DNA of 62,590 nucleotides, the filler included, from Sanchytrium tribonematis (Eukaryota), in NCBI GenBank assembly GCA_018985235.1. It is 7 parts of 7 records of this genome, joined end to end, with 100 filler letters (N's around TTAATTAATTAA, not from the genome) between each part and the next. Parts side by side here need not be neighbours in the genome. Positions count along the whole stretch, not along the records: positions 27,047 to 35,892 come from JADGIG010000355.1; 6 more parts are not named here. One strand, given 5' to 3'. Below, piece after piece: positions 27,047 to 62,590 of the stretch; position 1 is the first letter of the stretch; each line of letters opens with the position of its first letter. A program made the translations under genes and the position numbers. The notes beneath the pieces were generated by a model. That model did not search any database. It was not told the DNA's origin and was given only the letters and a program-made list of their open reading frames with translations.

Positions 27047-27967
27047 ATTAATGAAATCTCTACATTTAGAGAAGAAGATAGTCCTCTCAAATTTAAAGTG
27101 GCTGTCGTTTGGCCTACACATTCGAATTTGGAACCTGTAATGCTTTGAGCATCCCATTTTAAGGGTGAAATTGTTAAAGACCAGTAATTGGCCAATGATT
27201 TACTGATGATGTTTTCAGCGCTGCCAGAGTCTAGCAAAGCTGTTGTTTGACCATTACCGTTAATTCCAATTGGTAATTGTGGTCTTCCATCAATCACTGC
27301 TACTTGTGATTTCCTGTTTTTAGGGTGCAACTGTGGGTGCAATACCAAGCATTTTTCTTCAGGGTGATTTTTATGCGGGGATTCTTTGAGTCATTTGGGG
27401 GTCCGCTGGAGAATTATTTTTTCGCTTTTGATTGACTTGTTCGGAAAGTAATTTCATATTTTCTTCCGCTCTTTGAGCAGTAGAGAAAGCATCAGACAAA
27501 TTTGACACATTTTGCAAATTTGCAAATGATTGAATATCTTTTAATTTACCATCCAAGAAGAAGTTCATTTGGTCACGCCCACTCAATTTGTCATCTGCAG
27601 AGGGTGTTAGGAAGTTGCAACATTTTACATTTTGTTTAAATCGGTAAAAATAGATATCAACCGATTCTTCTTGCATTTGCTTTAAGCGGCGAAATTTGCC
27701 AAAAAATTTGCGATGTGCATCAGCACCAACAAAAATGTCTTGCAGCTTTTGCACAGCCTCCGTAGCGGACTGATATGGCAAAAATTCAATATAGGTCTGC
27801 AAAGTAACACCACCAAGAGCGCGTTTGAGCTGTACACAACCGATTGACTCTGGATCATCAGTGGTTGCTTCATTTTTCCACTTGCAAGTTGCCATGTGGC
27901 TTTCAAACTCCTTTCTGAAAAACACAAAGTTCTCACTAGGGGTGCCAAAATATTTTTTCATACTCAA
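27047..27967 (-). mobile_element. LTR retrotransposon gag-protease remnant (Ty3/gypsy-like)
   Basis: Gag-like FRRLKQ...ESVD.Y..RF; aspartic protease ALLDSGSAENII; frameshift between the two parts. Confidence 0.8.
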
Positions 27968-28214
27968 CTTATCCTCCTAATTGGGACACGTAAATTTAAC
28001 GTCAGCGTTTTCGTATTTTGATTTCTGAAACATTTGAATTCAAAATGTCGTAACCGGATTTATTGATGTGTCCTTTTATGAACTATGCAAGTACTTCTAA
28101 TAAATATGAATCCAATGGAATCCTCCTTGGGGAATCACGGCTTTCTTGTCCAAAGTGACATTGACCATGTGACATACCGATTTCAAATCAAAACCATCCA
28201 ACCCCAATCTGCCA

Positions 28215-29280
28215 AGTTTAAAATCCATAAATATTGACCATTGTAATATACGCGGAATACAAAACAAAACAGTATTTATTCATGATTATCTCTTAAAATA
28301 TGACATAGATATATTGATATTGCAAGAAACTCAAGTACATAAAAACTTGGAAAACACACCTATTTATAAATACTTCAATAACCGCAGACAAATTGGGAGT
28401 GGACACTACGAGACCGCAATCTGCCTCCACCCCAAATATGATAGAAATTGGATGTCAGTCATTGTACACGACAATATCTGTGTCTGTATTCAACTAAAAG
28501 ACTTTAGAATTTTATCCCTTTATTTACCCAATGATGACAAATTATTTCGCAAATATAAACACCTCTTCAATTCTTCAACAATTATGATGGGTGATATAAA
28601 TAGTCAACTTATTAATCCACGCACCCCGGAAGAATTTGGAGTAAGAGAAGAAATCTATTCATTGCATTTATTGCCAATGCTTCATAATGCCCAATATACC
28701 CACAAAAAAAGCTATTAAAATCCCAGCAACCCAGATAAATAACCTCGGGACATCAACAATCGATTATGTTTTATAAAACTCAAATAAATCACCTTAGAAC
28801 CCATCAACACCATTTTTGACCCAATTGAAAAGGGTATAAGCGATCATGCTATTTTAAGTGCCAGCGTAAATTGTACACAATCACCTGCTTTTACCAAAAC
28901 AATCACGTCGTCGAGTCCATTTACTTTCCAGTGACACCTCCAATTCTTTTCAATTTGCAAATAAACTAGAGGCCAAACTCGTCTTACACTCTTATGAGCT
29001 TGAATACCATCACTATAATTGGGTCGACTCAAACAACCAACATAGAAATTCCATTCCCCTACAACAAAGCCAGTGGTTCGGATGGAATCCATTATAAACA
29101 CTTGAAAAATGGCGTTAAGCATGGCATCAATGGAACTTTGCTGAAGATTCTACTTCAGCTCGTTAACACTATCTTATCAACAGGAATAGTCCCCTTTATT
29201 TTTTAAATATCTAAAATAATCCCGATCTTCAAAAACAAGGGCGATTATCTAAACATCAAATTTTATAGGCCCATTACAAT
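28215..29280 (+). mobile_element. Degenerate LINE: APE endonuclease and start of RT
   Basis: CNIRGI, ILQET, MGDIN, IDYVF, SDH, then KASGSDGI; several stops and frameshifts. Confidence 0.8.
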
Positions 29281-29284
29281 ATCG

Positions 29285-29600
29285 TTTATAAAAAATCAAT
29301 TTCATCAAAAACGCGTCATGTGCACTTGGGATAATTTCATCTAGTAAATTATATGTTGAAACTCTATCACACTTGTCAAATGCACATGAGCAGTCATATT
29401 TCTTAATAACATAGTCATCTCGTTGATCTATGGGAATCCTCTTAATAAATTCATTCATATCAAATGCACAATAGTGGTAGGAAGTACCTGCTTTATACGC
29501 ATATGAGTATTCACTGGTTTGGAAACATGATTTATTCTCTACCAATTTAAATAGATGTCTCAAAAGTCCCATTGGACGTGCTTTTAAAATCTGGGGATTA
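29285..29600 (-). mobile_element. LINE RT fragment of the same family as 57230-59392
   Basis: RPMGLLRHLFKLVE..YAYKAG..KKYDCSCAFD versus RYLGMTSHLKKMME..YGYKKG..KKYDQRAAFD. Confidence 0.8.
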
Positions 29601-29659
29601 TTTTGTAACTTGGGGATTGGTGCAATCAATGTCAAAAGAAGATCATTTGGAATGTTCAA

Positions 29660-31917
29660 ATTAAGCTGCATCAGTAAAAAGAACGATCAAATTCGTCTTG
29701 TTATTGATTGTAGACCTTTAAACAATATTACTATAAAATACAAACTACCAAATGCCGCATATAAACTATTTATTGGCGATGCTACAGTGTGCAATAATCT
29801 TCTCATCTCTTGATTTGATGTCAGGCTATAATCAAATTTGAATCGCAATGGATTCTTTGAAGTATTCTTGTATTGCCCTACCTTGGGGTATTTATCGATT
29901 CAAACAAATGTATTTTGGTCTCACTAATGCATTTTTCACATTTCAATCAATGATGAATTCTCTTCATGGACATTTAAAATTTGTCCTGGTGTACTTGGAC
30001 GATGTTCTGATATTTAGTTAAACACTAGAAAATAACCCTGTTATTTTTATTCAAATTTGGTCAAGATATGCGACTCTTAAAAAAGAATGTTACGCTATTG
30101 TGAGTGCATTAGTTCATCTCCGATACATGCTTTTTGGTACAGAAATGGAATTTCAATAAACTGGATAGCCCGCGTGTGATGCGATGGAAATCCATTATTG
30201 AGAAATTTAACGTCAATATGAGCCCAATCAAAGGCTCTTCAAACAGATCGGATTATATGAGTAGACCTCCTAATGAATCTTTACCAGTATTATCAATTAT
30301 TGCTGTTAATTATCCCTTACAACTAAATTTCCTTAAAAGATGTCAAGATAATGACAAAGATTTTAATATTGTTCTAAAACATATGTTTAAACCCAGCAAT
30401 AAATGGCTTACAAAATATCAAAAATTAATTGCACCAAATGCATACATTCATAAAATTGAAGGCATTGAATTATTATGTCAATCTCGTGAAGATGATTCAA
30501 AACAAATATTAGTACCTCTAATGTAGATAAGATGTTTGGTGGAAGTGTGCTAATTGGGATATCCTCAAATTCCTCACCATCATATTTCTCACTTAAGGAA
30601 ATAGGTGTTTTACTCTGTTGTTGAGGTGTTAGAGTACCATTGTCTCCATTGGAAGTTCTTTGTTTCTCTCCTGTTTCAGTTGATTTTAAATCACTCGCTA
30701 CCATCTAAATGTAGATAAGATCTTTATTGGGAACTTTGGCTCTATTTAAGCAATTAGAACCTTCTAGAAATTCCCTTATCTTTCAATTGATAACACATCC
30801 GTGTTACAGTACCAAATTGTGTTAAACTAAATGTTCTCTCAGGTTATATGAAATTATATTACACCCTTTCAACTTATAATTATTGGCCGTATCTGAAAGA
30901 TGATTGTCAAAAACATACAAATCGTTGCAACACTTGTAAATAAATCAAACCTGTCCATCATGAATATGGCGTGTTTGAAGATCGATTGAATCCTCCAAAA
31001 ATGCCATTTGAACAAATCAGTGTTGATTTAACAGGCCCCTTACACCTTGTGACATAGACGGAATCGAATATATTTATTCACTAAATGTTATTTGCAATTT
31101 TTCAAAATTTGTAATTTTAATACCATTAACATCCTTGACTGCCAAAGAGCTGTGTAATGCATTTGATAAAAAAGGATTGTGTGTTTACACGTTGAGTGAC
31201 AATGGATCTAATTTAACCAGTTTTGAATATCGAGAATTATTGTTATCATATGGAATTAAACAAAGTACCACCAATGTGGCGAACCCACAAGGTATATCAT
31301 TTATTGAGAGAATGTATGGCTCAATGCAAACTATGATGAAACTCGAAGCGGACACTGAATGGGCTCATGCTATATCGTCAATTCAGTGGGCAATTAACTC
31401 TACCTAATATGAACCCCGCGGAAGTGATATTTCACACACCAAAAAATCAGGTTCCACCAAATTATACTGAGATTCCACTACGCCAGCAGAAACAAAGATC
31501 AAAGGATTTAAAACGCAAAAATGAACGTAGAATCAAACACAACTACAAAGTTGGCGATTCAATCTTTCTAAAAAATGAAAAGAGAAAGCATAAATTAGAC
31601 AAACTTTATCTAGAACCGTATCCTATTGTTAAAGTGTTTCCAGAAGCAAATAATATATTAATCTACAAAGATGGTATATTTACGAATAAATTATCGTAAG
31701 GTTATCCCTGAAACTGGAACTACCAATTTTGCCATAAAAAAGAGAAAGGGTAGAATGTCACGAACGTGACACAACAGTACACATCATTACAATAGTTGCA
31801 CAACTGCACAAGATCTACAAAGGATCTGCTCAGTAGTGTAACCTTCTACAACATAAAAGCACACAACGCTTCAATAAATAACTTTCATCTACCTAGGTTA
31901 TGTTAGTGTCGCCTACA
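29660..31917 (+). mobile_element. Degenerate Ty3/gypsy pol (RT, RNase H, integrase) with PPT and 3' LTR
   Basis: RLVIDCRPLN, VYLDDVL (about 29990), RW.....F..IKGSSN..DYMSR, WP.L..C..C zinc finger, SDNGSN and ERM integrase motifs, LY.EPY. Confidence 0.85.
31756..31917 (+). repeat. Putative short 3' LTR (about 162 bp, TG...CA)
   Basis: Follows polypurine tract 31736-31755 directly; starts TGTCA, contains AATAAA; 3' boundary (..CCTACA) is inferred. Confidence 0.55.
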
Positions 31918-31979
31918 TAAATACAGTGCGGGCCACCAAGGCGCTTTAATTTTTGAAAATGGCCTACTTTGTCGCGAAT

Positions 31980-33300
31980 TTAGCTGGGAATATAAAATCC
32001 CATGTATCCTTGCCCTGCTAATTCTACAAGAATATGATCATGTCTAATGGATGGTAAATTAATACTACCATGATGATATTTGTATGGATTCAGTAACAAG
32101 CACATCCCGTAGTGACCATTTGAATTTGTGCCAGGATTGAGTAAATATGATTCAGGAGTGTAAGTCTCTTTTGCAAGTTTGCATTCAGCAATAAACAAAC
32201 AATCTAGTGATGTAGAATCTACTAAAGACAGGCAGTATGCTTCACGTCCCTTTTATCCGTCGCAATTGTAAAATGCGATTTTTAACAATTCAGATGAATC
32301 TACCAGATTAACGCGAGTAATATCCGGGAATATTCGAAAATTGGAATGTAGTGCTGTATTTCGGATTTCTGTATGATGTATAGAGTGATTAGATGTATCA
32401 TTTTCATTATTGGGAGTTACAGTTGCAACATTTTGAGACACTGACTGGGGATTTGCATTCAAATTAGAGAGAATTTCAAATAAATTATTATTGGGGAAGC
32501 CTCCATACAATTTACCAGTGATAAATAACTCATCATTCAGTTTTAATACCGAATCATTTCTTCTCAAAACGTGATTTACGTAAATATTGCAATGGGAATT
32601 TGCAGGTTTGGAAAGAGTTGTAGAATGCCTATTTCTAACGTTTGAGTGTGCTTTGTAGTGATACAAATAGTTGGGTGATGTAACAATTTAACAAAGTAAA
32701 AATAAGGATGCTGATTGGATGGAACTTTATTTAGCTTGAGTGTTTGCCAAAGACATGCATATACAAATGATATTTGCAGTTTACAAAGTATATCAATTAT
32801 AAAGAAAATCAATGAAATATCGAATGTGACAAATGTCGAAAGTGTGGGGAATGTGTAATCTTGAAGATATTTCGACAAATTAGCAACAGAAGCAAATAAA
32901 GTGTGTTTGATTTGTAAATCATTTACTTGAATAACATCACGAGTCACTACATTTGACTTCTGTGTTGGATAAGTCGAAAATGACCTTGTTAATGAATACG
33001 TGTAAGTAATTTCCAATTCTACACAAGAGGGATCCACAAACAATAGTGTTTGATTGGGGTCCATAACGACTCCCTTTTCTTCATATATTTGCCATTGTAG
33101 AATCCACCAATCAAATGTTGACAATTCACTTAGGATCGATTTCCCAATCATTTCTAAAGTAACTGATTCTGGGCAGTTGTCAAGCTGTCTAGTGTGCTCA
33201 CGAGGGAGTCCTTCATCAGAATAAAAAGCTATAGTTCTGATGGCAATTGTTTTGGGTCCTGGATATGGTTTCAACTGTGTTGATTCTTCTGTTAAAACTG
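31980..33300 (-). mobile_element. Degenerate copy of the Ubl-bearing LINE family (Ubl-GG followed by APE start)
   Basis: FVKLL...KLYGG, NLFEIL, AFYNCDG and YGMCL...HDHILV...MGFYIP align to 59710-62283. Confidence 0.8.
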
Positions 33301-34000
33301 GATTTGGTTATGCCAATTGTATCATCAATAATTGTATCTTCTTATGATGCTTAACAACTGGTCTGTCAAATCGAATGTGATAGAATCGGCGTGTCAAATT
33401 CACAATATGCTGGGACTCACGAAATATGTACAATTTGAGTAATGGACCCAAGATGGATGGATCCAATTGTGATTGATTTGGAGATCATTTGTCTCTTTGG
33501 TTGAAATAATTCGATGCTATTAATAGTCAATATATTGGTCTGTGACTAATCAGTAAACTCATTTAAAAACACAAGGATTTGAGAGATGCAACTAGATGAT
33601 GCTTCTCAATGTCATAATTGGATGAGAGGGTCTGATCACATTCCCGAAAAATTAACATCTTAATTTCTCGGTTTGAGTTTGAAAATCATTATTAAAGAGA
33701 TGTAAACGCCTTAAAAGGAAGTAAAACTTCTCTACTCTTTGCACTGGATTATGTCACCATTTTTTAGACCGGTTTTCTAAAGTGGATGGATAAAATCATA
33801 CGTTTCTCTTTTGATATTCGATCTTGCATCATCTTCGTAATCACTGTCACAAAAAGAGTTCATTTTAAGGATTCGACATAGTTTTTTAAGGATTACACGT
33901 GAGAATGGTTTAGCGGACCCGGTACCGGTACTTTTTGACATGGGTTCCGGTTCCTGGGCACCCATTTTGGGAACTCGAAAATAAAACAATTTATTGCCAT

Positions 34001-35892
34001 TTATTGTAGATAATGCATAAAATCGTAAATATTGGATTGAACAGACTGCGTTGTCACGCTTGGAAATGCTTGTTCTATCTTAGATTTTAAATCAGAAATA
34101 TAATTATTGATTGTTGGTACCATATTGGAGTAAATTGGTTGATCAAATGAGTTAATTTTAGCAAGAAATACTGTTCCTGACTCAATTAAATTAATGTATT
34201 TTGATTCATCGTGACCATTTACATCTTCCAATGCACCTTCAATTTCTGGCGTGTAAAATGACTCGTTGTTAACATCATTAAATTCCCCACTGTACTCACC
34301 AAATACAGAGCATTGTATTGCTTCCTGCACTGTTATTTGACTAAACGCTGTTTCAGTTGACAAATTTACAGCATTTTCAATCCTGTCAATTTCATCAATG
34401 TTGGAAATCATCATTCCTAATATAAGAACTAAATTACCACCAAAAAGAGTATGAATGTAATTTAATCCCAATTCTCTATCCATTTCCTCTGTTGATTCAG
34501 TCATTGTTGCTGGTGGATTGGGAGAAATTGGCAAAAATTCAATTGGTGGTAATGGCAAATTGTTTGTGGTGTTGATAAACTGTTGTCTCTGTAGACCCAT
34601 TTATCTAATAATCTAGTGTTAGCAGCCTTTAAAATGGCATTGCTATCTTCATTTATCATTATTTGTTGAATATTTGAAATTTTTGTTGCTTCCGGAAGAC
34701 AAATAGATCTAATCCATGCCCGCATTATCATATTAAAATCAATAGAATCCCAGCTCATGGAAATAAATTTGGCTAATTCAAATGTTGATGGAGATGAGCA
34801 TTGGATAGAATCAAACAATGCATTTTTCAATAATTCATTTTCATTTGTAGTAATAATTTCACTAAATCCTTCTCGTGTTAAAATACCCAGCGCCTCTGAT
34901 TCTAGTGCCTTCATATGATCATTAATATACATTTTGCGATATTTACACTTCAAAGAATAGAATAAAACTGCATCAAGGGGTTGAAATTGTGATGTCGAAT
35001 TTGATGGCAAAAATGCAATTTTGATTCTATTCAAGCTGGAGAGAAAAGATAGACTCATAACGTGTGCACTGTAATTATCCACAATTAACAATAAATTTGG
35101 CAGAACTTTGGGATGACCATCAATGTATAGCAAAATTTGTTCGAATAATAAGGAATTCATCCAGCCCTTATTAGAATTACCACGAATGCAATTACAACTA
35201 TGCATTTGCTGATAGCAGTGCTTTCCATTTGCAATTTTGTTAATCCATTCCCACAATGCTTGCTTACGTCGCATATCATGTGGTTGCATCGCAGAGCCAA
35301 TGAAAGCAATTGGCAATTTGTCACCATTAGCAAATACAGTACCAACAAGTGATACTCTTTTATTTGAACTTGCACGTCCATGGACTTCATCACCAATAAA
35401 TCCAATTGTCATCGTGCCTAAAATCTCATAAAAAAGTGCGGATTCATCCAAATGTAGCAGTCTATCTGCTGTATAGGAATCATAATCTGGCACCTGCTCT
35501 CTTAGATATTCTAATACATCATTACGTTGTACACTAACACCAGCACTAGTTCCACTTGCAGAGCGATATTTTAAGCCATTTCTTCTAAAAAAGGATTCTC
35601 TGAAATCTTGTAAATATGTAAATGGTTTTGAGGGATATATAATATCTGCTAATAAACATTCATTTCTAATATCTAATTCAATTTGAAGCGCGTGCCGGCA
35701 AAATTGGGCAGAGTTTTCCAAAATTCCTAGATTATTTACACTTTTAATAAGCAATAAAAGGGCTTTTTCAAGTTTGCAATACATTGGTGTTCTTTGGTGA
35801 CCAGCAAATCCACTCAAACGAATGTCAGATGGCAATAAATGCTTTTCAATTCTAGTTTTGGGATTGGATTTGACAGTTAAAACCCCAATTTT
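34001..35892 (-). mobile_element. pogo/Tigger-like (DDE_1) transposase, 5' truncated, frameshifted near 34600
   Basis: LDESALF, KGWMNS..F, LLIVDNYSAH, FLPSNSTSQFQPLD. Confidence 0.88.
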
Positions 35893-53791: not shown

Positions 53792-54880
53792 GAATATGCC
53801 AACACACAAGTACTTCTTCTATTTTGTATTTTACTTGCTTTTACTATTTTTGTAGTGCTTCTCTATTTGTTATTTACTATTTCCTAATATGCTTGTGGCT
53901 TGTATTGCATTTTCTTTTATATTCATCGATATAAAGGTTGATTTGTTATTATCAAGTATCATTTTTTCAGAAATTTATGTCCACGAGTGTATTTTATTTT
54001 TTTTTGAATCTTAGATATTGATGTTTGATTAAGATATTCGCTACGCATTTGAAAATATTCGTTTTTCTGGATTTTCACTTTTTCTTTAACAACCTCATTG
54101 TAATCAAGCAGGATTTTATTTGAAAAAGAAAATCAGATAGTTCAGCTGGAAGACTTGAGTTTTATCCACTGCTTCAGTGGTAGATATTACAATGAAGTTT
54201 TCTAACTGAAGAAATGTGTCTGACACAATAGATTTTTGTTTGTTATCAGACAATGAAGAGATGCATCTTGATAAAGATTGGATTGATAAACATATTTTTT
54301 GAAATTTACAGAATTTTTAGTTTATTTTATGTTAAAATTCAAACTCTTTGGATCAGAGTTCCAATTGTTTGTTTTTAATCTGGATATTTGGGAAGCAGCG
54401 GTAAAGCCTTACAAGAGACGTCAAAATACAGAAGGGAGTGACAAAACAGAGACATTGGGATAGATCCGTTGTTGGAACTTTTTAGCTTGCAATCAGATGA
54501 TCAGGTAAAATTTATTCAATACCCCCATCTGTTTATCTATAAAATGTAACTGTGGAATTGGATAAATCCTGATAAAACATTTGAGTGAATCTTATTACGC
54601 CGTAAGCCGTAATTAAAGATCGCATCATTGATATCACATGGAAGAAAACGTGTAATTTTGTCCAATAAAGTCAATCTCCTGCTTATGTCATTCAATCTCC
54701 GGGTAATATCCTCTTTTTTAACTAAAAAGTATCTGTTATTAATTTCTTCCCATTCCATATTGTCAATTAGATTAACAACAACATTTGTAAGGTAGAGAAA
54801 TAGAAATGAGAAGAAAACAAGAGTCGAAAACTGAAAAAGCAAAATAAATATAGAAGAAGTACTTGTGTGTTGGCATATTC
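53792..54880. repeat. Inverted repeat (31 bp exact: 53792-53822 and 54850-54880)
   Basis: GAATATGCCAACACACAAGTACTTCTTCTAT and its reverse complement. Confidence 0.85.
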
Positions 54881-55378: not shown

Positions 55379-55968
55379 TTATGACTTATTTGGAAGATTA
55401 CTAGTGGGTATGCCATGTATTGCGATGTGCTTATCAATTTGATTCAAAGACACCAAACACTTATCCAACTTAGCCGCCATATCCATTCCCGAGAGATTTT
55501 TGTCACCCGCCATATTATCCATGACAATCTCTATCTCCCTCCTATTTTTGAACATAATGTCCCTTTTATCGCGTATATTACTACCATTATGATTTATATT
55601 TGAGATAGCAGGGTCCAATTCAAGCAAATTTTCACAAATAATGTCCAACTGGTCGCAAGGTGGGGTTAATCAAAGTTTACAATCATTTGACGATTTATTG
55701 ATTATAAACCACATAGTAGGAATCAAATCACTATACAAATTAAGCTGTATTACATTGGGAATCAAGTATATATAATGTGCACACATGGCAATCTATTTGT
55801 GACACTATAATTACAGCTACATCCATATAATCCATCTATATTATCAATTATAAATGTAGACTTCTTATATACAACCGTGATAGATCCATCATCATTACTG
55901 AAATGGGATTTGCAGTTGTAATATTTATCCATTTCATTTTTAATCAAATTAGATGCATATGAGGTCAC
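55379..55968 (-). mobile_element. MULE-type transposase remnant (SWIM finger)
   Basis: CSCNYSVTNRLPCVH matches the CxC..PCxH SWIM motif; stops nearby. Confidence 0.6.
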
Positions 55969-55971
55969 AAT

Positions 55972-56763
55972 ATGACAAGAGGAGATTTCGACTTTGAAAA
56001 TTTGTCTCGATTGAGTAACTTTTCACTCATAATAAATCGTTCTTTGGAAACATTGAACTTGCAAACCCATAGTATCTTCCATTTACTAGCGACCCCAAAT
56101 GGAAATAACGAATATTATTCATCTAGGAAGCATACTCGCTTCATTTTAGCAAACGTTCCTCCGGATTTGACTCCTGAAAGCATTATGAGGTATATTCGTG
56201 GTCATTACAAAAGCTGCGGCCATTTATTTGCCGAAATGCAGCAGATATACGACAAAACATTCATTGAAATTATTTGTAAAAAAGTACATTTCCCCCGAAT
56301 CAGCACGATATTTAGTCAGATGAAGACTAAATTTACAAATTTTGATGTGTATGGCATTTCCGAAGTACTCTGGATGGATTTAATTAAGTCATACGATGAT
56401 ATTTTACAATATGAAATTGAAAGACTCAAACAGGCACCTATCGACCTATTTTATAAATTGCAATTATCAAAAAGTAGACATAAAATGAATTCTGTAAGCT
56501 ATGTATATTGTGATAGTACCAAATATCTTCTACAGGGGAAATATTCAACATATTTCTTAAAAAGAAGTATTTATTGGAAATATCTAGAGCTTGAGAGATT
56601 GTGCTCATTAGATTCGTGGTTTTATCATTCACCCTACGATGATATAACCACATATACAACATTCGAGTTACTCATGTTTTTTTTTATTACACGATTTATT
56701 GACTCAAAATCTAAAAGAGCGAACGAAAGAATCTTCCAAATTCACATAAATGTTCTTCTGTAA
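55972..56763 (+). mobile_element. ORF1-like fragment homologous to the N-terminus of the LINE polyprotein at 59710-62283
   Basis: RFIL..., IEII, W, E...L and VSY motifs colinear with RFII..., VELI, W, E...L, VSY. Confidence 0.55.
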
Positions 56764-56810
56764 TGTGATCTACTTGTTTCGATATTTGACTAAGTAAATT
56801 TCCTTCTTTC

Positions 56811-57233
56811 TTGACAATTTCTTCAAGGTATCTGTCAAATCTTAATGATTTCACTATTTATTGTGACAATAAGTCAAGTCTTAGAATTTGTCAAAATATT
56901 TGGGACAATCATGATCCCTCTAAATCGTCTTTTTCTCATATTGTAATGAAGGAATTATATTTACTAAAACAAAAGGGTGTCTCGCTTCAATTTGAGTGGG
57001 TAAAAGGACATGCTGGACATGAATTTAATGAGTTAGCAGATTCCCTGGCTGGTGAAATCAATCCCAGCATTCCAAATTTACGTTTATTTTCTTCCAGCAG
57101 AATTTCCAATAAAAGGCCCACCAGCTTTTGGTATGGTGAAAATCATTTGGACTTTAAGAATTTAAATTCTTTTCAAATGCGAACTTTTACAAAAAATGTT
57201 GCCGCGTTTATGAATACAATGTATTTATTTTAA
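56811..57233 (+). mobile_element. Retrotransposon RNase H fragment
   Basis: YCDNKSS, EWVKGHAG..FNELADSLA. Confidence 0.8.
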
Positions 57234-60200
57234 TGCACAGCCGGGTGTTTATGAGATGGTGCTCTATTTTCTAAATCCCCTAATAAATTCTTTCTTTCTC
57301 TTTCTTTCTCTTTCTTTCTTGGATATTTCTTGCTCACTAATGAAGTAAAATATCTATTTGAATTATCTTGCAATGGCAAATTACATCCAACATCACAAAT
57401 ATCATTTCCACGACAATAATCCTCGTCATTTTCTTCTTTATGCGCATAAACATGTTTCATTTCAACATTTTCAAAATTCCCTTGAATAATCAAATCCAAA
57501 TTGTTTATCTTCCCATAATCACCATTTGATTGATATAATTGAATGGCCTGGATGGCAGACATGCTGTCTGTTAGAATGAGTAAATGTTTAGAATCATCAC
57601 GGCATTTGGTGGCCTCTACAATACAGGCTATTTCACTGCGAGTACTGCTATTAATATTTAAAGTAGTAAAATCATATAAAATGTATGATTTCGTAGCTGG
57701 TTTGAAAATGCAACCAGTTGATTTATCAAGTGTGAAACTGGCATCTGTATACATTATCTCATATAAATTATTATTATAATCACAAATAAATCTATCATTA
57801 TTCATATTATATGGTAGGATTGCCATATCTAGTCCAATTTGAGTGAATGAATTGATTGGAGTGATATTTGATCTATCAACAAATGACGATTCTGCTAGAA
57901 ATTTGAGACCACACTGCTGGATCCAATACTGATTCTTGTAAATATTGCCAGATTTATGCGATTTGTTACATAAATGACAATAATCTAGATTTTGTGGGGG
58001 GATTTGCAATTTTAGTAATTTTTGCAATCTTTTGTATTTGCATGTTCTTTTATGGATGTTTGAGGATGACATGGAGTATTTGACTTTTGGAAATGTCACT
58101 ATCTGGCTAATGGGTTGATTTAATCGTTGAATAGTATGATTTCGATGTCTCGCATGTAAATCATGCCAACGGAAATAGAAATGTTCCATATTGTACAGTT
58201 GATAAATGTAGTCATTTGTCATGGATGATGATGCACCAATATAATCACGCACATCTTTGAGAATAAATGAGTTGATGCGATTTGCAATGGTCTTTTCAGG
58301 GGGAAACAATTTCAATCCCTTTTCAATCAAAGGAAGAACCATTGATTTATAAATTGTCAATAATCCACGCGCATTTAATGCTCCATTGAATACACCAGTT
58401 TGTATATTAAAGTATTTACGAGTATTGGCAGCTTTCAAATTTAAATCAACTTGTTGTTTTCTACTAAATCCATTTTGATTAAATAAAATGCCAAGATAGG
58501 AGTCTTTGGCAGTCAAATATCTTGTCTTACTGTCATTCAAATATAAATTAACTGATTCTAGTCTATTAGTCAATTCTAAATCAAATTCTGCAAAATTGGT
58601 TTCAGGAGCAGCAGCCACCAAATCATCAGAAAACATGGAGAAGAAGTTCTCCCGAGTACGCAAGTCACCCAATAGTCTATCCATTAATAATGCAAACAGC
58701 AACGGCGACAGAACTGATCCTTGTATCACACCCGTGTTTGTTTCACGAGTGGATGAGTAGCAGGGACCAATTCGGAACATGACACGCTGTTTAACAACTA
58801 GATATTTCAATACATAGCAGTCTACTTTGTTGGGAATCAAATCATCCAACATATTACAAATGGCAACTCGTGAGCATGTGTCAAATGCAGCACGTTGGTC
58901 ATATTTCTTTATCTTATACTTGGATCTCTCTGCTTTTGGCAATTGCTTAAGAAATGAATCCAAGTCATACACTGCATCACAATGATTGACACCCTTCTTA
59001 TACCCGTACTGCACGTCAGATGTGCGTAACTCATTGGAGTATCTATTTTGCAGCATTTTCTCCATCATTTTCTTTAGATGACTTGTCATCCCCAAATAAC
59101 GGTACTTATGTATGTCAATTGTTTCAACACCCTTGGGAATGGGGTGCAGAATTGTTGTAATGAATAAATCTGGAATTAAAAGGCATTTTTGAATGGAAAC
59201 AAATAAATCAGTCAACATCTCTAAAAGCAGAGGATCTGCATATTTTACAAGTTCAATAGGTAGCTTGTCACTTCCCGTGGACTTATTCATGGGCATTTTA
59301 CCCAGAGCAGCTTTTATTTCATCCAATGTGAATGGAATGACATCATTTTCAATATTTGAATTTAAGCAATTCCTGGGATACTTCTCTGTCATTCCACTTG
59401 GTATCTACTAGTTTGGTACTATAATCTTCGACACGGGTAAAGTCAAGCATGCTCTTTGGATCAAATTTGTGTTTGCGTGCAAATTTGGTAATTTTTAACA
59501 AATCAGAGGCATTCTGACTATTTTTGAACTTGGAAAGATTATGGAAATGCTCTCTTTTCTCTTTACAGTAAATCTCAAATGGATCTTGACCACTGGTGAA
59601 TAAATTTGCTTGTAACGCATTTTTGAATTTCTCCATGTGTTCTGGAATAATAAATGGTTTTGGTTTTGTATATCCAATTATATCACTTCCACAGTCAATA
59701 AGGCACTTTTCAATGATAAGAAGAGCTTGCTGGTTGATGCGAACTCAAATTTTGGTAAAATTCAGGGGAAATTTGTCTCAAACGAGCTGCCGAGATGCAT
59801 TTGAAATGCTCTCGATTTGGAAACTCAACATTCCCATTAGAATCCTTTATGGACTGGTTAAATTTATATACTTTTAGCTTAGATTCTTTGACAACAATCA
59901 AGTCTTTACTAAAATCATGCAAATCAATTTCTAGACAAATTGATAGATGATCACTGCATGTTTGTGGGAAACAATGCAATTGAGTTCTATAATCAGATGA
60001 GGTAGGTGTTAATGCGTAGTCTAATAATGAACATTGGTCGGAATTATATCGGCAATAAGAGAAATTTGAATTTAAAGGCAAAATGATTTCTAGATTCTTT
60101 GAGTAGATGTAATCAGCAAATGACTGATATTTTGATGTTGGATTATCATGACTGGCACCCACATTTACATCTCCTAAATAAATACAATTACTTCCACCGA

Positions 60201-62283
60201 TTTTATATAAATTATGGAAATATGCCGCTTTATCACGCACATTTGCTGGCAAATACACTCCCATTATACGAAGTGCACCCACTTGAATAAGAATATGATC
60301 AAATCTCTTTGACAACACACGAATATCACCCTTTTTATATTTTAAATGATTTATGGCTAAACACATGCCGTATTGTGAAGTGGGTGTGCAACTTGCTTTG
60401 ACTACAAATGATGCAGGTAGCCAGGATGTGTCTTTTAGCCTTGTTTCAGATACGAAAAAGAGGTCAGGTTCGTATTTCTCTATCTGATTCAAAATAAATG
60501 CTTCTTTATGTTTGATGCCATTGATATTCAAATACGCTGCCTTGAAACCATTTTCAAATTCAAATTGAGGCTCACTGACTTCCTCAAATGATCTTAGATG
60601 CCTGAAGTATAATTTTGACTCGTTTTTGGATCTTGTGAGGGGAACATTCTCTGACAGTTGTTGATTTGAGATTAATGTCTGTTCTGCTAGAATTTCAAAA
60701 GGATTTTGGTGTTTTACATTAGTGGATCCACCAGGTTGATACCCACATATTTGAACTGTATCTTGTGGGAATATTTTAAAATTTGGATTCAATGTTGTTT
60801 TATGATTCAATTGAATTATCCACTTTCTATTACGAATGGATTGTCCTTTAGGCATAACAGTATCACATATATCATGCCATAATAGACTACTGGAATTAAA
60901 TTCTATGCATCTTGTCCCTTGATCTAGAAATTTAAAAAAGAAGCAATAATTTGAAGTAGTGTTTACTGACTTCATTTTAACTGACTTAATAGCTTGAAAT
61001 GCGATGGTACCTTGGAAATCAGTCGTCACAATGCTCACATCATATGAACTTGGATTGTTTTTGATTTCCAGTGGAAGAAAGTGGTTTGCGGATGCATCCA
61101 TTGGAACTGTCATGACCCATTTAGTATCATTGTATTCGCAGAATACTTTGATGTCCTGGACAGATTCATTCACAATAAAAATAGTAGTGTTGGGATTCAC
61201 AATTGCATCTAATTTCTTGCAATTTTTCATATTGTAAACCAGATACTTGAATTGGCGATTTCTGATTGCTTGTTGGAGTGTCAAATTTGGCTTCCAAGTG
61301 TAAATTGTGTATCCTTGACTATCAATCACTTCATACTGGGGTGGTTTGGGTGTTGGATTTGTCTTTTGACGCTTTTGCAATGGAGATTCAATTGTACTGT
61401 TTGCAGGTCTGGGAGTGACTTGATTGGACTGGATTTCACTTGCAGTAGGTCTTAGAGTCTGATGATGATGCTCTAAAGACGCAATCATTTGTTGTGACAC
61501 ACTGGAAGAAGGAGCAACAGATTGATTTGATTGGATGTCATCTGTCTCATTTCTCTCTTCAATAACATTCAAACCAAATGCATTTTCCAACGCAGAAAAA
61601 TCCGTATTTGCCAATTGATCCGAATTAATCATTGGTTGAAAGCGGAATTGATTTGATGCAATCAATTTGTCAATATCCTTGATAATTTGGATTTTAAAGG
61701 CCTTTTGATTGAAACCATTTCCATTTAATTGCTTTAACGCACCCATCCAGCAGTAGCTGACGGTTCCAAAGTATCTTGGTCTAGAGTAAGCTTTTAAATC
61801 GAGTCCTAAACTGATTATTGACTTGCGCAGACCGTGACATTCCTTTTTAAGAAGGATTTTGTTACTTGGGCGCGCTAAAAAACAATTCCATTCTAATTGG
61901 CTATACATGGTAGCCTGTCCAAAGTAGGTTGCCATTTCTTCACTAGTCTGAAATGTTACAAAAGCAGCTTTTAATGCGGGTACTGTCTTTTCTTCCACAA
62001 TTAATTCCACACAGCAATTGTTGTGCGTAAACATACAAATTGGAATAAATTTAAATGCCACTTTCATTTGATTCTTGAATGCCAATTGAATACCTTCTGC
62101 ATTCATGTTGCCTTCATCATTTTCGCGTCCTTTGCGTAATCCAACAATAATAAAGCGCAAATATGACTTGTTTTCTTCATTGTTGATATATTTATCAAAA
62201 AGTTTAATTGTTTTTGGTGAAGGAGCGTGACTGTGATTTTGCTCGAAAGCATCTGCAGTGACTGGGAGATCTCCTTGTGTCAT
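57230..62283 (-). mobile_element. Near full-length non-LTR retrotransposon: ORF1-like, Ubl(GG), APE, RT, Cys-rich motif, RNase H; two frameshifts (about 59740 and 59365)
   Basis: APE (YLNING, SETRL, GDVN, LDY, SDH); RT (KSTGSD, AFD, GVIQGSVLSPLLF, FSDD, YLGI); CHLC; RNase H (YTDAS, SEI, TDS, HVYAH, GND.CD). Confidence 0.9.
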
Positions 62284-62590
62284 AGTTACTCATGTTTGTG
62301 CAATACTTTTTGTGGATGTCAAATTACCTACTTGTCGTACCTTCTAAACCGGTTTCTAGCACCATAACGTACTTTGTTAAGCACCCTCACTGCAAAACAA
62401 TAGTGAAAACTACATCAGTAGGCACCTGGTTCTCTATCGTGAAGAAGGATCTAAATTTGTCCCAATCACAGGATTTAAAATGGAAATACTTTAGAAATGG
62501 GATTTTGCAAATTCGAGACTTTGTTTTGTGTCACAACGACACGAATTTATGTCACTTGGTGGCTCTCCTAATGTGAATCAATTTGAGATT

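Follow-up and report, generated by a model that had tools for sequence, protein, structure and literature searches.

Some APE-type non-LTR retrotransposons carry 2A peptides, among them L1Tc/Ingi and members of the CR1, L2, Rex1, and Crack groups (PMC3708506, PMC3894237, PMC5814959), and passages of one review describe the two products of APE-type elements as not being processed (PMC3894237). How single-ORF LINEs yield separate products is only partly explained. In other systems, ubiquitin inserts in the polyproteins of cytopathic pestiviruses are described as being cut by cellular C-terminal hydrolases (PMC8310069), and captured proteases are described in Helitrons (PMC11417382). Here we report a lineage of LINEs that retains a likely ubiquitin-like unit ending in Gly-Gly (Ubl-GG) before the APE endonuclease. 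The feature is real, and it is wider than a first-pass annotation of the same DNA could see.

The DNA analyzed (the window; 62,590 nucleotides from Sanchytrium tribonematis) consists of seven joined contigs, each of ca. 9 kb, with N spacers between them, and it comes from a eukaryote whose genome is compact and poor in introns, with fungus-like genes and the standard genetic code. One copy of the element, designated A, is near-complete and occupies the minus strand at 56680..62283; it extends from an ATG to a short poly(A) and contains frameshifts near 59730 and 59380. Because A is flanked by a 14-bp target-site duplication (5' copy, 62284..62297; 3' copy, 56666..56679), carries the poly(A) end, lacks terminal repeats, and has a corresponding empty site in two contigs of run X1, it can be identified as a non-LTR retrotransposon. 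Its domains are arranged in the order N-terminal domain, units, APE, reverse transcriptase (RT), and RNase H. The last unit comprises 74 residues (60727..60948, minus strand), with its Gly-Gly end at 60727-60732 and the motif NPFEIL next, at 60705-60688. The APE follows at 59890..60546 (minus strand; end approximate; Exo_endo_phos, E 2e-4, and Exo_endo_phos_2, E 5e-5, both below the curated cut-off), and the RT and RNase H at 57230..59404 (minus strand; RVT_1, E 5e-20; RNase_H, E 1e-5). A database protein, P0002, whose source label is also Sanchytrium tribonematis, has the same layout in an unbroken ORF of 1635 residues, is 44% identical to A over the RT region, and lacks both of the frameshifts found in A. 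Thus, P0002 shows the ancestral single ORF of the family. In A and P0002 alike, the Exo_endo_phos(_2) match lies upstream of RVT_1, and the APE catalytic motifs of the two align, although the Pfam matches to APE fall below the curated cut-off.

Several other features of this region were observed. The first base of element A (62283) is that of its ATG, which abuts the target duplication without a 5' untranslated region, and the first five residues of A are identical to those of P0002. Inside the C-terminal end of A, a fragment of another retroelement with RNase H, truncated at its 5' end, lies in the opposite orientation (56790-57320); the last residues of A resume near 56860-56710 and match the C-terminus of P0002. 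At 53792-54880 lies a 1.1-kb element without a recognized protein, whose 45-bp terminal inverted repeats are 93% identical.

The second copy, B, sits on a different contig from A, as the first-pass annotation had reported. The limits that it gave for the ubiquitin-like unit are exact: on the minus strand, the unit runs from 32704 to 32499, with the Gly-Gly pair at its end occupying 32499-32504. It has 69 residues, with an X at the frame break, versus 74 in A, and the single frame change described earlier lies inside the overlap of two open frames (32687-32579), with the best site near 32592-32593. Upstream, an open frame on the same strand (32705..33307) encodes two more units, without GG, that are homologous to those of A, P0002, and P0007, another relative described below. 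The motif NLFEIL (32469..32486, minus strand) begins five residues past the GG, and the first half of an APE endonuclease occupies 31899..32285 on the minus strand; the motifs named in the first-pass annotation start at 32486 (NLFEIL), 32276 (AFYNCDG), 32111 (YGMCL), and 32042 (HDHILV). B is a dead copy, with two in-frame TAA stops in its APE and a truncation at ca. 31899 by a decayed Gypsy-type RT-RH-integrase fragment, which interrupts it on the plus strand (29700..31898, ends approximate; rve, E 4e-9). Beyond this fragment, an RT remnant of the same family (29282..29683, minus strand; 35% identical to the RT of A), which groups with A and P0002, is probably the continuation of B. Neither a target-site duplication nor a poly(A) was found for B. 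Since B is a pseudogene, its GG records past selection only.

Two explanations for the disrupted frames of B were considered and rejected. A recoded genetic code is ruled out: the two TAA stops face Ile and Asn in A, and the long host ORFs are standard. Assembly error as the cause of the frameshift is unsupported, given a second B-like contig from run X1 for which no indel is listed there. That contig carries nine substitutions and one gap, at 32485; its GG codons are unchanged and its NLFEIL is damaged. Run X1 is possibly the window's own source, and its contigs are therefore not independent of the window. The contig with B consists of nested transposons throughout, including further decayed retroelements at 27371-29280 (a gag-like ORF on the minus strand and an unrelated APE-RT remnant on the plus strand) and, just upstream of B, a pogo-like DNA transposon (33972-35857) that encodes a DDE_1 domain and has terminal inverted repeats of 29 bp.

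A third copy, Y, was detected only after the hypothesis had been set, and it too carries the unit and the GG. Element A is inserted into this member of its own family, which it interrupts. The N-terminal domain of Y lies on the plus strand at 55963..56679 (E 1e-9 with a profile of the A, P0002, and P0007 N-termini), within an ORF (55963-56760) that matches the family N-terminal profile; Y resumes on the plus strand at 62298. This second part has one unit, at 62361..62563 on the plus strand, which matches the A/B/P0002 profile with 18 bits (E 1.6e-7 on one sequence) and contains a frameshift near 62543. The Gly-Gly end (62558-62563) is followed by NQFEI at the window's end (62576-62590, plus strand). 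Y is seen in several variant contigs of run X1, in which ten extra letters occupy the frameshift site; with them, the frame is stop-free and the tail falls in the common register.

Relatives were sought with an exhaustive phmmer search of 1.84 billion representative sequences, which gave 10 matches at E <= 0.001, the query among them. Word-index protein searches returned, in three cases, the query itself, P0002 together with one distant fish protein, and nothing. Locus scans of metagenome and viral contigs gave no relatives among their pattern matches (0/591, 0/185, and 0/47), and tblastn against phages gave none. We count 10 family members: A, B, Y, P0002, P0004, P0005, P0006, P0007, P0008, and P0010. 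This count excludes P0003, which is the outgroup, and P0009, P0011, and P0012, which are weak APE-only matches with ca. 8-32 residues before the APE. A tree of RT sequences resolves two groups, one of A, P0002, and the B remnant (support 96/95) and the other of P0004, P0005, and P0008 (97/99), with P0007 unplaced and one distant outgroup.

The clearest case of a ubiquitin relationship comes from one of the metagenome proteins. The unit of P0005 belongs to the ubiquitin family: it matches a ubiquitin profile (E 1.2e-9), Pfam ubiquitin when searched as a cut-out (E 0.0011), and PDB ubiquitins, with 25 of 78 positions identical to ubiquitin. The domain has LRLVGG at its end, and 25 residues separate this end from the APE asparagine. 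Upstream of the domain, P0005 has an older-looking unit that resembles the GG unit of P0004 (p 0.004, one of 105 pairs; not significant after correction); tentatively, the P0005 ubiquitin may be a renewed capture behind an older unit. The units of the window resemble the P0005 domain in length and in position before the APE. For B, the six ubiquitin identities listed in the first-pass annotation (F4, V5, K6, L8, T12, and I13) agree with a database ubiquitin unit.

Several comparisons bear on whether the window's units have the same fold. The units of A, B, and P0002 each score higher in global alignment with database ubiquitins than all 200 of 200 best-of-100 shuffles, and profile alignments between the units and ubiquitin run end to end over 64-66 columns, with scores matched by 0/100, 1/60, 1/60, and 1/150 column shuffles. 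When the alignment of A and P0002 was compared to ubiquitin in 153 sliding windows, the unit scored 13.2 and the top position elsewhere 13.8. A, B, P0002, and Y went undetected with a ubiquitin profile HMM, and the A/B/P0002 profile did not detect the units of P0004-P0006. Two structure models have mean pLDDT values of 37.9 and 39.7, with the GG unit near 30. The low-confidence P0002 model (five alignment rows, mean pLDDT 39.7) contains three strand-strand-helix-strand repeats, and in a Foldseek search with this model the top nine rows were ubiquitin chains, ISG15, RA, and FERM (best E 0.046). The ubiquitin-like rows from VIA-align on the same low-confidence model fall on the first unit rather than on the GG unit, with Z ca. 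4 (best 4.4), among fibronectin rows. Taken together, these data are suggestive of a shared ubiquitin-like (beta-grasp) fold but support it weakly.

We considered whether the units of the window might not be ubiquitin-like at all, their likeness and GG being chance features of related elements and P0005 having captured ubiquitin independently. The failed searches fit this idea: no ubiquitin-like family was matched by the window's units in Pfam or by window-type units in PDB sequence searches, and Atlas gave no usable match for the window's units. Further, the chance that a GG falls in any given 70-residue stretch is ca. 11%. Nevertheless, the units share their length and the same predicted strand-strand-helix start, the shuffle tests described above go against coincidence, the same tail register occurs in two distant subclades, and Y is an independent copy with both features. 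We therefore regard chance as very improbable.

Aligning the corrected copies A and B, as the first-pass annotation had proposed, gave 19 identical columns of 65 (29%) in the unit, 21 of 129 in the upstream region, and 47 of 126 in the APE. The Ubl parts align end to end, with a global score of 26 versus a shuffle mean of -35; none of 5000 shuffles equaled this score, whether the GG was included or removed, and the local alignment score is weak (p 0.02). The annotation had also described the GG and a downstream N-x-F-E-I-L as persisting together. Only the first half of this statement extends to the family: N-x-F-E-I(-L) is confined to the window copies A, B, and Y and is absent from P0002 and P0004-P0006, and therefore is not part of the family-wide module. 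Motifs of the form N-x-F-x-x-L are also known from other LINE proteins and from Stm1/SERBP1.

In contrast, GG ends the unit in 7 of the 10 members; two are without it (P0007 and P0008), and one is uninformative (P0010, with 42 residues visible). In the metagenome proteins P0004, P0005, and P0006, the GG is in the same register as in P0002, and the diverged units of P0004 and P0006 place their terminal GG 19-20 residues upstream of the APE asparagine. GG occurs in both RT subclades, which are only 28-32% identical to each other in RT, and in GG-bearing members of either one there is no indel between the last strand and the GG. The last 12 residues are gap-free and in register in all six intact tails, with D or S at -12 and hydrophobic residues at -10 and -8; this pattern was drawn after the data had been seen, and it has two unrelated matches in the six frames of the window. 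It is absent from P0003, P0009, P0011, and P0012.

These observations allow a reappraisal of the claim that the shared GG reflects selection on the diglycine site rather than a one-off capture of a host gene. Two diverged copies cannot decide the matter, since a single early capture that was then retained accounts for A, B, Y, and P0002. Nor do A, B, and P0002 alone offer more than modest evidence: the GG is their sole adjacent invariant pair before the APE, but with 9% invariant columns ca. two such pairs are expected. The claim is partly supported, by retention of the GG in most of the family and in both RT subclades. The first-pass annotation had named members lacking the GG as evidence against its claim, and two such members do exist. 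P0007 is an unbroken ORF of 1585 residues that shares its N-terminal domain and two upstream units with A and P0002, and no GG is present in the 499 residues viewed; P0008 has neither unit nor GG in its 95 visible residues. Both have a hydrophobic stretch upstream of the APE (at ca. 385-410 in P0007 and ca. 30-70 in P0008), which could be another separation signal or a frame artifact.

We lean slightly toward the view that the Ubl-GG serves as a cleavage tag, by which a host protease would free the APE-RT from the N-terminal part of the single ORF. In the ORF, an N-terminal domain is followed by one to three likely beta-grasp units, the last of them with a GG end, and then by the APE, RT, and RNase H. 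Cleavage after the GG by a host deubiquitinase or Ubl protease would release the APE-RT-RNase H from an ORF1-like N-terminal product with GG at its C-terminus, a separation that other LINEs achieve with two ORFs or a 2A peptide. Any such cut would depend on a host enzyme, because the elements have no protease domain and no NPG motif, the latter being absent from all eight proteins checked. Judged by domain arrangement, the layout, in which the GG keeps a constant spacing to the last strand and a variable linker leads on to the APE, is that of a precursor cut by a deubiquitinase or Ubl protease. The residue following the GG is never proline (7/7 members), and a non-proline residue at this position fits cleavage, although this is a weak point. 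Ubiquitin-specific proteases normally read the LRLRGG tail and the ubiquitin surface. Five of the six intact tails deviate from LRLRGG, two of them with proline directly before the GG. Such non-canonical tails and the missing GG in P0007 and P0008 are the main doubts about a cleavage tag. Moreover, because P0007 has an unbroken ORF without GG and P0008 shows no unit in its visible residues, the tag would be dispensable in some lineages.

The same doubts would be accommodated if the units were never cut, and instead were beta-grasp interaction or oligomerization domains of an ORF1-like region, with the GG being only a flexible hinge inherited from ubiquitin captured long ago. This would explain the persistence of GG-less upstream units in A, B, P0002, and P0007, and it agrees with the resemblance of the low-confidence model, mostly via its first unit, to tandem ubiquitin, ISG15, and RA domains. 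Yet a hinge could lie at any distance from the last strand, whereas the spacing is the same in all six intact tails, and the linker after the GG varies from 19 to 78 residues to the APE asparagine in the six members with the APE in view. We thus consider an uncut hinge unlikely.

Less likely still is that the Ubl-GG targets the host ubiquitin system, whether as a protease decoy or inhibitor, as a proteasome signal that limits the amount of element protein, or as a released, conjugated modifier. Tandem units with GG on the last one only are reminiscent of ISG15 or polyubiquitin precursors, the P0005 unit is near enough to ubiquitin for recognition, and ubiquitin-system domains are described in other mobile elements (PMC6431247, PMC11417382). 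However, most of the units are probably too diverged for recognition by host E1, and the site directly before the APE is that of processing signals in other elements.

Returning to the cleavage tag, we propose more tentatively that a new LINE lineage splits its polyprotein via a host-cut Ubl tag, a counterpart of 2A that may have been renewed at least once by capture of ubiquitin, in P0005. Placement of a Ubl-GG before the APE makes processing of a LINE polyprotein by host proteases directly testable and, if the proposal is true, would show which of these proteases accept very diverged Ubl tails.

The Ubl-GG before the APE is likely to be new for this class of elements. Among the matches listed in our literature search, which lay outside Repbase Reports and most subscription journals, no paper concerned a Ubl before the APE in non-LTR elements, and the word "ubiquitin" is absent from the searched text of two 2A papers. 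The closest parallels are the 2A-bearing LINEs, whose N-terminal region likewise carries a separation signal ahead of the APE and which are, as described, mostly single-ORF elements. In L1Tc, as here, a single ORF encodes APE, RT, and RNase H, and poly(A) and target duplications are present. The signals themselves differ: 2A is a ribosome-skipping peptide (DxExNPGP), whereas here the candidate is a presumably folded domain that ends in GG and would need a protease. Burro/GYPSM1, which are giant Gypsy-like LTR elements, also have a Ubi2/SUMO-like domain inside a retroelement polyprotein, but they are described as encoding their own protease, and the domain is not beside an APE (PMC6431247); the passages on these elements do not give a diglycine or a processing role for it. 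In ubiquitin-ribosomal protein and algal ubiquitin fusions, ubiquitin-GG similarly heads another protein as a precursor; these are host genes (PMC6332867), and "transpos" and "transcriptase" do not occur in the text searched. Finally, as described for the pestiviruses, an in-frame ubiquitin precedes an enzyme that gains its N-terminus from the hydrolase cut, much as is proposed for the APE. The viral insert, whose cleavage has been tested, is host ubiquitin that an RNA virus acquired recently and that is still near-intact, whereas the candidate retrotransposon tag is old, mostly very diverged, and fixed in its lineage.
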